Shown: positions 59,290-61,018 of the stretch, one piece after another | Layout: the number at the start of each line of letters is the position of its first letter | Numbering within the stretch: the stretch's first letter is position 1 | Assembly: GCA_963789825.1 (NCBI GenBank) | Contig: CAWBME010000006.1 | Coordinates: 974,612 to 1,038,611 of the forward strand | Length of the DNA stretch: 64,000 bases | Origin: an uncultured Chloroflexia bacterium | GTDB taxonomy: Bacteria > Chloroflexota > Anaerolineae > Anaerolineales > E44-bin32 | Reading direction: 5' to 3' | Notes under the pieces: model-generated | Database searches by the model: none | The model's input: the letters and a program-made list of their open reading frames with translations, nothing else | Told to the model about the DNA's origin: nothing | Position numbers and translations under genes: made by a program

Positions 59290-59319
59290 TTGACTTCTTT
59301 CCCCGAAAGGCGCTAGAAT
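59290..59319 (+). promoter_or_regulatory. Putative sigma70-type promoter of the ubiquitin-like operon
   Basis: TTGACT (59290..59295), 18-nt spacer, TAGAAT (59314..59319). Confidence 0.55.
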
Positions 59320-59325
59320 AAGGTC

Positions 59326-59342
59326 TGCTGGTCTGACCAGCA
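59326..59342. promoter_or_regulatory. Perfect 17-bp palindrome, candidate GntR-type operator
   Basis: TGCTGGTC-T-GACCAGCA has 8+1+8 perfect dyad symmetry. It starts 7 nt after the -10 and ends 14 nt before ATG 59356. Its half-site TGGTC/GACCA fits the GT-Nx-AC rule for GntR-family operators. Confidence 0.5.
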
Positions 59343-59355
59343 TACCAGAGGGCGC

Positions 59356-61018
59356 ATGCAGATTGAGCAGATCGATCACCTGAGGCTTGGCCGAGCAGGT
59401 CGCGGGGCGGCTGGCGGCGTCCATCCTGGATGGTGGCTTGCAGGCCGGCGAGCAGCTCCCTGCCGAGCGCGACCTGATGACCCGTTTCGGCGTCAGCCGG
59501 GCCACGCTGCGCGAGGCGCTGCGCATGTTGGCCGAGCACGAACTGCTCGCGGCCCGCCCCGGCGTCGGCTGGTTCGTGCGCCAACCGGGGAAGCGGGTGC
59601 TGCCTTCGGTGATGGCGCTGGCGCAGGCCCACCGCCCTACGCTCCTGGCCGACACCCAGCCGGCGCGCCAGCCGCCGCCGGAGGGCCCGCGACGCCTGAC
59701 GGTCGTCGCCGAGAAGCCGCTGCATATCCCTAACCTGCGCACCGACCGCCTGGGCACTTTCGACTTCATCTCCTGGTGGGAACGGGACAAGGTCCAGGCC
59801 GCCCGCGTGCTGGTCGTCGGCGCAGGTGCCCTCGGCAACGAGGTCGTCAAGAGCCTGGCGCTGATGGGCATCGGTCATCTGTTCCTGGTCGACTTCGACA
59901 CGATCGAGGCCGCCAACCTCAGCCGCTCGGTGTTCTTTCGCGAGGCCGACACCGGGAAGGAAAAGGCGGTCGTCGTGGCGGCACGCGCCAAGGCGCTCAA
60001 CCCACAGATCCACGTCCAGCACCTGCAAGGGGACGTCACCACCCGACTGGGGTTGGGCATCGTCCGCCGCATGGACGTGGTCATCGGCTGCCTGGACAAC
60101 CGGGAGGCCCGCCTGGCGCTCAACCGCTTCTGTTACTGGATGGGCAAGCCGATGGTCGATGGCGCCATCCAGGAGCTGCTCGGCCTGGTGCGAGTGTTCG
60201 TCCCCGGACAGGGCGCCTGCTTCGAATGCACCCTGACCGAGCAGGCGCGCCGCGAGATCTCGCTGCGCTACTCCTGCCCGCTGCTCGCCCGTCACAACAT
60301 TCTGCAGGGCAAGGTGCCCACCACCCCGACCATCGCTTCGATCATCGGCTCGATGCAGGCCCAGGAAGCGCTCAAGCTGATTCACGCCATGCCGGTCGAG
60401 GCCGGCAAGGTGACCCATTTCAACGGCCTGACCAATGCGATGCACACCACCGCCTATGTGGCGCGGGAGGACTGCGAAAGCCACTGGACCTATGGGGAAG
60501 TGATCGAACTCGCCGCTCGTGCCGACAACACTCGGGTGCGGGACCTGCTCGAGGTCGCCCAGCGGGACCTCGGTCCGGAAGCGGTGATCGAACTCGACCA
60601 CGAACTGCTCCTTCGGCTGAGCTGCCCGCTCTGCCAGACCGTCGAGGAGGTCATCCGCCCGCTGTCCGAGGTGAGCTTCGAAGCCGGCCACTGCCCGTCC
60701 TGCGGGGTTCTGCGAGAGACCGACATGACGCACCTGCTCACCGGGCGGGAAGGCTTCCTCGATCGCACGCTGTCCAGCATCGGCGTCCCGCCGCTGCACA
60801 TCTTGCGCGCCCACAATGGCCGCGAGTACCGCTTCTACGAACTGACCGGCGACCTGGCGCAAGCGCTGCACTTCTCCGATTTCGAAGGACCCCCACCAGC
60901 CAGCAGCGATCCGCTCTCCGGCCAGCGCGTCCGGCTCGGGCCGGAGGTCGGAGAGACACCTGCTCCGGGCAGCCCGGCGCGTGGGCGGATCGTCGTCCAC
61001 CAATCGGAGGCGCAGTGA
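59356..61018 (+). CDS. E1-like Ubl-activating enzyme (ThiF/UBA fold) with an N-terminal GntR-type wHTH and C-terminal C4 zinc ribbon
   Basis: ORF 59387..61018. The wHTH is [41 protein letters not shown]. The Rossmann region is VLVVGAGALGNEV...LVDFDTIEAANLSRSVFF. ACFEC is followed by YSCP (Cys at 60275..60277), positioned like the catalytic Cys of UBA-type E1s. The zinc ribbon CPLC...CPSC lies at 60623..60703. The probable true start ATG 59356 (MQIEQIDHLRL) is one base out of frame (extra G ~59389). Confidence 0.8.

Follow-up and report, generated by a model that had tools for sequence, protein, structure and literature searches.

A GntR-type winged helix fused to a bacterial ubiquitin-activating enzyme, and a conserved predicted operator at the promoter of its own operon

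PdhR is encoded at the head of the operon that it represses, as the first gene, and its operator follows closely behind the promoter; PdhR and FadR-like proteins read operators of the form TGGT-N3-ACCA. Some repressors are also enzymes. BirA combines an N-terminal winged helix with a protein-modifying, adenylate-forming enzyme and represses the operon of its own pathway, and PutA and NadR are other trigger enzymes. MocR regulators sense through a domain that resembles an aminotransferase. Burroughs, Iyer and Aravind reportedly described in 2011 prokaryotic operons that combine a ubiquitin-activating enzyme (E1), a ubiquitin-conjugating enzyme (E2), RING, JAB, YukD and ubiquitin-like protein (Ubl) components, with the Prok-RING_1 family among them (cited in PMC10557695). 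Here we analyse a 64,000-nucleotide stretch of contig CAWBME010000006.1 from an uncultured Chloroflexia bacterium (the window), in which a GntR-type winged helix is fused to an E1 (GntR-E1). The fusion gene stands first in a Ubl-conjugation operon, directly behind a palindrome (the dyad) that is the predicted operator. The comparative evidence leads us to conclude that GntR-E1 probably represses its own seven-gene operon.

An earlier note, made from the letters of the window, had claimed that a GntR-type winged helix-turn-helix is joined in frame to an E1. Pfam agrees with this: the open reading frame (ORF) 59387..61018 has a GntR match (E 5.6e-21, amino acids (aa) 2-64, model length 64) and a ThiF match (PF00899, E 7.7e-55, aa 128-363), with zero stop codons between the domains. 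Both PF00392 and PF00899 were found in 120 of the 120 best homologues (66-96% identity, 511-559 aa). In addition, residues 1 to ~548 were matched in one frame in the best 80 species-level genomes encoding a relative, all of them Anaerolineales or other Chloroflexota metagenome-assembled genomes, whose loci are the 80 loci referred to below. The fusion is therefore genuine. A larger number, 450 genome matches, is unusable as the size of the fused clade, because unfused relatives contain one of the search patterns, VDGAIQEL, as well.

The 5' end of the window copy carries one irregularity. Orthologous proteins begin with MQIEQIDHLRLAEQVAGRL or MQIEQIDHLRLAEQ, and the window frame reads the same from ATG 59356 until it breaks after codon 10. 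In the DNA alignment, the window has CTTGG at 59387/59388 where L081, L082, L083 and L001 have CTGG; L081, L082 and L083 are three independent contigs with 96% protein identity to the window protein. The earlier note had suspected an extra G near 59389, and was right about an extra base but not about its identity, which is T. This T is probably a sequencing or assembly indel. It leaves TTG 59387 as the only start open to the ORF as sequenced, from which the winged helix is still whole. An indel near the 5' end of the gene could also suggest that the fusion is itself an artefact, in which separate GntR and E1 genes have been joined only by misassembly or a frameshift error. However, the extra base lies upstream of the winged helix and not between the domains, so it neither creates the fusion nor separates a stand-alone GntR from the E1, and a database search for such fusions, as proposed in the earlier note, returned a continuous two-domain ORF in more than 100 protein clusters from many independent assemblies and in 80 genomes. 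These findings already refute the artefact, to which we assign practically no probability.

The dyad that the earlier note had placed between a TTGACT-N18-TAGAAT promoter and the start codon is indeed there (Table 1). This promoter was the only sigma-70-like match in 58400..59800 (0.0 in shuffles), and TTGAC[AT]-N16-19-TAnnnT was present in 63 of 77 orthologous promoters. The dyad sequence, searched at 0-2 mismatches, had a single match in the window, namely itself; it widens to 12-nt arms (59322..59346) with one mismatch, and the operator scored 35.3 bits with the weight matrix described below. Perfect 8-N1-8 palindromes as such numbered six in the window, compared with 2.3 expected (maximum 8) in shuffles. 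Since a perfect 17-bp dyad is thus not rare in this G+C-rich window, the significance of the element comes from its position and conservation and not from its perfection. The other five perfect palindromes are at 13345, 34155, 36226, 45967 and 55808.

The earlier note had made its idea depend on whether the dyad recurs upstream of orthologous operons, and it does. Outside the promoter hexamers and TGGTCTGACCA, the upstream regions of the 80 loci have almost nothing in common; the site, consisting of the core and the right flank CATACCA, stands beside the promoter in 79 of the 79 fused loci with upstream DNA. In an alignment of 77 sites centred on the dyad, positions -4..-1 and +1..+3 were invariant, the inner five pairs were 88-100% complementary and the right flank (c)C-ATACCA (+8..+13) was nearly invariant, whereas the mirror left flank TGGTAT was only 40-60% conserved and varied without compensatory change. 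What the relatives have in common is only the 11-bp core TGGTC-T-GACCA and the asymmetric right flank (c)CATACCA. Specificity was equally high: when a 21-nt weight matrix was scanned over the 866 kb of the 80 loci, on both strands and with a threshold of 18 bits, all 98 matches at or above the threshold fell on the E1-promoter site (plus-strand reading in 76, minus-strand reading in 22), and no other site in these 866 kb reached it. In three loci where the site had at first appeared to be missing, it lies with the promoter ~195 nt upstream, still abutting the -10 hexamer. This anchoring to the -10, even with a ~195-nt leader, shows that the operator is an element of the promoter and not of the ribosome-binding site. 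From the last base of the -10 to the dyad centre the distance was 14-17 nt (mode 15; 77 promoters), which places the core at about +4 to +14, at the expected transcription start, the classic position of a repressor site.

These data also bear on a different function, in which the dyad would act as an RNA hairpin in the 5' leader that controls stability or translation, rather than as a protein-binding DNA site. It does lie inside the transcribed leader, and in the window it could fold with -14.4 kcal/mol for 29 nt. However, most relatives form only 4-5 pairs, and changes in the left arm are not compensated in the outer right arm, which is invariant; this argues that sequence and not pairing is conserved. 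Furthermore, the element tracks the promoter and not the start codon in the loci with long leaders, and no Rfam family matched at the dyad. An RNA element at this position was therefore rejected, on the empty Rfam result and on arms without covariation, and we consider it highly improbable.

The head of the fusion protein is similar to those of the FadR-subfamily GntR repressors PdhR, LldR and LutR. By sequence its best solved relatives were PdhR (2.5e-10), the best match, and the FadR-like Rv0494, and its recognition-helix residues S47, R48, T50, R52 and E53 were invariant in 73 sequences. In an AlphaFold model made from the alignment of these 73 sequences (mean predicted local distance difference test score (pLDDT) 71.9), the winged helix at aa 11-74 consists of three helices and a two-strand wing (pLDDT ~85). 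It is followed by a helix at aa 82-90, a segment at aa 94-139 with pLDDT 30-40, the adenylation domain (~aa 140-380), a beta-rich C-terminal domain (~aa 380-500) and a disordered tail. MccB was among the structural matches, and E1-like enzymes of the MccB type have an N-terminal winged-helix-like peptide clamp. A corresponding role of the winged helix here, as a clamp for substrate or Ubl and not as a DNA binder, is nevertheless very improbable in our judgement, given that the domain is a full-length, high-scoring GntR match with the DNA-binding heads of PdhR and FadR as nearest relatives, and that an operator of the cognate type is conserved beside the gene. The locus shares with PdhR, LldR and LutR the TGGT-N3-ACCA architecture (GT-Nx-AC type), the position of the site and a regulator encoded by the first gene, and we infer that the head binds this site. 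It differs in that a whole E1 with its C-terminal domain stands where these regulators have FCD, the effector and dimerisation domain: neither FCD nor UTRA was matched in the fusion protein, the C-terminal part being ThiF/E1, and no small-molecule pocket is evident.

Head and operator also occur together. The E1 part alone was searched against 1.84 billion representatives at 50% clustering, in which the fused clade forms one cluster (P0121); no other cluster in the best 150 representatives has a GntR head. The nearest proteins outside it (<=50% identity, ~390-420 aa), from Ca. Promineifilum and other Anaerolineae, begin at the E1 core. Two further N-terminal extensions were considered as helix-turn-helix-E1 fusions and rejected, one being a zinc-ribbon (P0189) and the other an acidic low-complexity segment (P0192). 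Five unfused operons (L084, L086, L088, L089 and L090) have the same E1-RING-Ubl-E2-JAB gene set, and all five lack a GntR gene and any TGGT-N3-ACCA sequence, with matrix scores of at most 5.6 bits. The locus resembles the Prok-RING_1 operons in that a ThiF E1, a UQ_con E2, a YukD-like Ubl, JAB and Prok-RING_1 are all present, but the GntR head and the operator are found only in the Anaerolineales clade, and its closest unfused relatives are without both.

Metagenomes were further scanned for exact matches to the 18-bp motif TGGTCTGACCANCATACCA, which yielded at least 120 loci. Among the 120 matches listed, 105 directly precede a GntR-E1 gene on the same strand, usually 25-33 nt away, and at five more the contig ends within 100 nt. 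Among the ten remaining listed matches, the motif adjoins stand-alone GntR+FCD genes in two: in L095 (3271-3289) it lies between a divergent GntR+FCD gene and a CCG-domain (LutA/GlcF-like) gene, and in L098 (314-332) it stands beside another GntR+FCD gene. The heads encoded there share GVSRxxLREA with the E1 head, at overall identities of 46% and 39%, respectively. Because it adjoins such stand-alone genes, the motif can be assigned to the operator type of FadR-subfamily heads, and it is apparently in wide use as a FadR-type operator sequence. Together with a head nearest to PdhR and Rv0494, this upholds the earlier description of the dyad as a FadR-like GntR operator. The identical 18-bp motif was also seen between divergent start codons on two high-GC contigs, L156 (3906-3924) and L164 (1899-1917).

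That stand-alone GntR+FCD regulators in other bacteria use the same motif raises the question of whether the dyad is the operator of another, trans-encoded FadR-type GntR, with the head of the E1 used otherwise or vestigial; the loci were inspected over only ~6 kb on each side. However, the site accompanies the fusion (79/79 fused against 0/5 unfused loci), the fused head shows no variation at its recognition-helix residues, and no stand-alone GntR gene is conserved near the fused operons, with one stray ORF in all of these flanks. The only linked FadR-subfamily head at the fused operons is the head on the E1. We therefore regard a separate regulator as unlikely.

Negative autoregulation by GntR-E1 is well supported by a head that is nearest to PdhR and FadR, the type that uses TGGT-N3-ACCA operators, and the self-repression proposed in the earlier note gains comparative support from a site that is present at all fused and none of the unfused loci and lies over the transcription start. 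E1s with a single adenylation domain, such as ThiF, MoeB and Uba5, act as homodimers, so a GntR-E1 dimer would offer two heads to a palindromic operator. The heads would be presented to TGGTC-T-GACCA and to the outer half-sites TGGTAT/ATACCA, and at about +4 to +14 they could block RNA polymerase. In this way the E1 would limit transcription of itself and of the genes for RING, Ubl-E2, Ubl, JAB, FHA and vWA. A head that instead tethers the E1 to DNA or the nucleoid, for modification of DNA-associated targets and with promoter occupancy as a by-product, would suit the long low-confidence linker and the membrane and FHA/vWA partners encoded in the operon. With such targeting one would expect either numerous sites or a promoter free of them, whereas the 866 kb hold a single dedicated, specific site per promoter, over the transcription start; we find this explanation quite improbable.

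Several observations weigh against simple autorepression. The right flank CATACCA is kept better than the left arm, which a simple symmetric dimer leaves unexplained. The co-occurrence test comprises only five unfused operons, all of one related lineage, and the window copy of the GntR-E1 gene contains a frameshift. Finally, a second element, Box 2, an imperfect palindrome upstream of the -35, is conserved, indicating at least one more regulatory input. Its family consensus is TAGTAC-N4-KWCCTA, matched at >=11 of 12 positions in 44 of the 77 aligned promoters, and it occurs at two phased positions that differ by about a helical turn (~-61 and -70 relative to the dyad centre). The relocated RING gene has a promoter of its own, with Box 2 and no dyad (L022 4960-4985, L025 about 4955-4980).

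We also considered the state of the enzyme half. Foldseek top matches of this part were ThiF, Uba7, Uba5 and MoeB, and by sequence the match to the active adenylation domains of eukaryotic Uba7/Uba1 (3e-25) was slightly closer than that to ThiF (7e-22). In the 73 sequences GxGxxG (GAGALGN), D179/D181, R190, K203 and D247 were invariant, as were two CxxC pairs and an RYSC307P loop, which is placed after the first CxxC, at the position of the crossover loop. By analogy, C307 is a candidate Ubl-thioester cysteine. The fusion protein is the sole E1 of the operon. With its motifs invariant and no other E1 in the operon, the enzyme half seems to be a working E1 and not a degenerate sensor, and is apparently catalytically intact. 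This sets GntR-E1 apart from MocR/GabR, which it resembles in carrying a GntR head on a dimeric enzyme-fold domain, in that all E1 catalytic motifs are kept.

The earlier note had gone on to propose Ubl/ATP loading or self-modification as the inducing signal, with the E1 as sensor of a one-component transcription factor. In such a reading GntR-E1 would be a trigger enzyme, whose operator occupancy would follow the catalytic cycle in a BirA-like manner or by sequestration. Possible routes are loading with Ubl-adenylate or thioester, docking of E2 or the membrane RING, and auto-conjugation of Ubl to the head. We put this forward tentatively and think it rather doubtful. GntR-E1 would be a functional analogue of BirA, as a winged helix joined to an adenylate-forming, protein-modifying enzyme, but folds and families are unrelated, and the BirA adenylate is a proven corepressor, whereas the linker of GntR-E1 seems flexible. 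With pLDDT 30-40 at aa 94-139, the model suggests a loosely tethered head and argues mildly against rigid allostery. If GntR-E1 is a trigger enzyme, transcription of the whole cascade would follow how much Ubl conjugation is needed, in analogy to bio-5'-AMP and BirA, and it would be the first transcription factor with a ubiquitin-activating enzyme as sensor; Ubl pathways would gain a new principle of signalling if catalysis gates DNA binding.

The operon itself is well conserved. Gene order in the 80 loci was near-uniform, with GntR-E1, membrane RING, Ubl-E2, Ubl and JAB, and JAB is followed by a membrane FHA protein in 68/80 loci and by a vWA protein, secreted or membrane-anchored, in 66/80 (in L045 the FHA and vWA region is 10486-12476). 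The cassette therefore comprises seven genes (E1, RING, Ubl-E2, Ubl, JAB, FHA and vWA), and the window stops 160 nt into the FHA gene. The window RING protein matched Prok-RING_1 with E 3.5e-5 and 24.1 bits, under the gathering score of 29.1; the records of the unfused L084 and L086 assign the homologous gene to Prok-RING_1. The free Ubl has an exposed C-terminal glycine, with a -TAG end and no propeptide, in 71 of 77 loci. In the Ubl-E2 fusion the same TAG motif is present where Ubl meets E2, a sign that JAB may cut at this junction. The stop codons of E1 (GTGA, 61015-61018) and JAB (ATGA, 63841-63844) overlap the start codons of RING and FHA, respectively, suggesting translational coupling along the operon.

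Table 1. Features of the GntR-E1 locus (window coordinates)
Feature	Position	Strand	Basis or remark
Box 2, imperfect palindrome upstream of the -35	59264..59279	+	TGGGAC-TTTA-GGGCTA in the window
Sigma-70-type promoter TTGACT-N18-TAGAAT	59290..59319	+	pattern scan, orthologous promoters
Operator (predicted)	59322..59347	.	palindrome search, matrix, conservation
Weaker left outer half-site AGGTCT (TGGTAT in relatives)	59321..59326		
Window-specific perfect dyad TGCTGGTCTGACCAGCA = TGCTGGTC-T-GACCAGCA, 8-1-8	59326..59342		
Operator core TGGTCTGACCA, 11 bp	59329..59339, centre T 59334		
Conserved right flank ATACCA	59342..59347		
AGAGGG (Shine-Dalgarno-like) and true start ATG 59356	59347..59358	+	orthologue starts, DNA alignment
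GntR-E1 fusion gene	59356..61018	+	553 aa without the extra T; 543 aa from TTG 59387 as sequenced
Single-base insertion, extra T	59387..59388	+	DNA alignment with L081, L082, L083, L001
Winged helix	~59390..59578	+	Pfam coordinates
Low-confidence linker	~59609..59746	+	AlphaFold model
ThiF adenylation domain	~59768..60475	+	Pfam coordinates
C-terminal beta-rich domain, then disordered tail	~60467..60829 (domain)	+	AlphaFold model
Membrane protein with C-terminal prokaryotic RING finger, candidate ubiquitin ligase (E3)	61015..61932	+	Pfam, synteny
YukD-like Ubl fused to UQ_con E2	61929..62777	+	Pfam; position conserved in nearly all loci
Free YukD-like Ubl ending -TAG	62824..63120	+	Pfam
JAB/MPN metalloprotease, candidate deconjugating and processing enzyme	63152..63844	+	Pfam, synteny
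Start of sixth gene, multi-pass membrane protein with C-terminal FHA	63841..64000	+	runs off the window

Bacterial Ubl conjugation (Bil, Bub, CBASS Cap2) is topical, and its regulation is so far known only through separate regulator proteins; the regulators known from Bil/Bub-type operons, CapH/CapP and CapK/CapS, are of this kind (PMC11601603, PMC10557695). Type I Bub contains a Ubl-E2 fusion (PMC11601603, PMC10557695), as does the GntR-E1 operon. In PADLOC, only weak partial matches of the E1 to BilD and Cap2 were obtained, that to BilD with E 2.8e-8 over only 110 residues, and none for E2, Ubl or RING. The seven-gene cassette has no gene for a DUF6527 protease, and its E1 is fused to GntR and not to JAB or E2. 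On the partial matches and the missing DUF6527, the locus is neither Bil nor Bub as defined in PMC11601603, and membership in a defence system was rejected. Moreover, the Bil/Bub operon families are sporadically distributed (PMC11601603, PMC10557695), whereas the GntR-E1 operon is kept throughout a clade at the level of an order. Its chromosomal stability across Anaerolineales is a hint that it serves housekeeping or the stress response rather than phage defence.

Public annotation already labels the protein with both functions (JGI names). In the full-text literature, which did not cover the Aravind-group papers of 2009/2011, we found no description of the GntR-E1 fusion or its operator. The protein would be a GntR-type autoregulator with a ubiquitin-activating enzyme as its C-terminal module. 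E1 would thereby join the short list of enzyme-repressor fusions: in this eukaryote-like cascade (E1, E2, RING, JAB and Ubl), it is the entry enzyme that bears its own putative DNA-binding head. The proposed circuit is testable, as it comes down to a defined 20-bp site and a 95-aa domain.

Two explanations of Box 2 were tried and rejected. A lexA homologue lies convergent to the operon, 2-3 kb downstream, in 26-27 of the 80 loci (L045 12537-13211, minus strand), and the own promoter of these lexA genes carries GAAC-N4-GTTC. This lexA box differs from Box 2 and was found within 400 nt upstream of none of the E1 genes, so Box 2 is not a LexA box. Nor did Box 2 compensate for a weak left outer half-site, the association being non-significant (Fisher p 0.17). 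The rest of the window held no excess of Box 2-like patterns (7, with 6.1 expected by chance). The Box 2 half-site TRGTAY is loosely like the outer operator half-site TGGTAT.

Upstream of the GntR-E1 operon, the window contains a cold-shock protein gene (58521..58730), followed by a terminator-like hairpin at 58928..58945; the ~340 nt in front of the E1 promoter carry no assigned feature. The leader of this gene (58428-58784) matches the Rfam cspA thermoregulator below threshold (56.6 vs 78 bits). Upstream of the unfused Promineifilum E1 in L084 (6880-6990), tandem short repeats GTGGTCTGTGGTCAGTGGTCTGTGGTCAG are followed by TTCGTAA x4.

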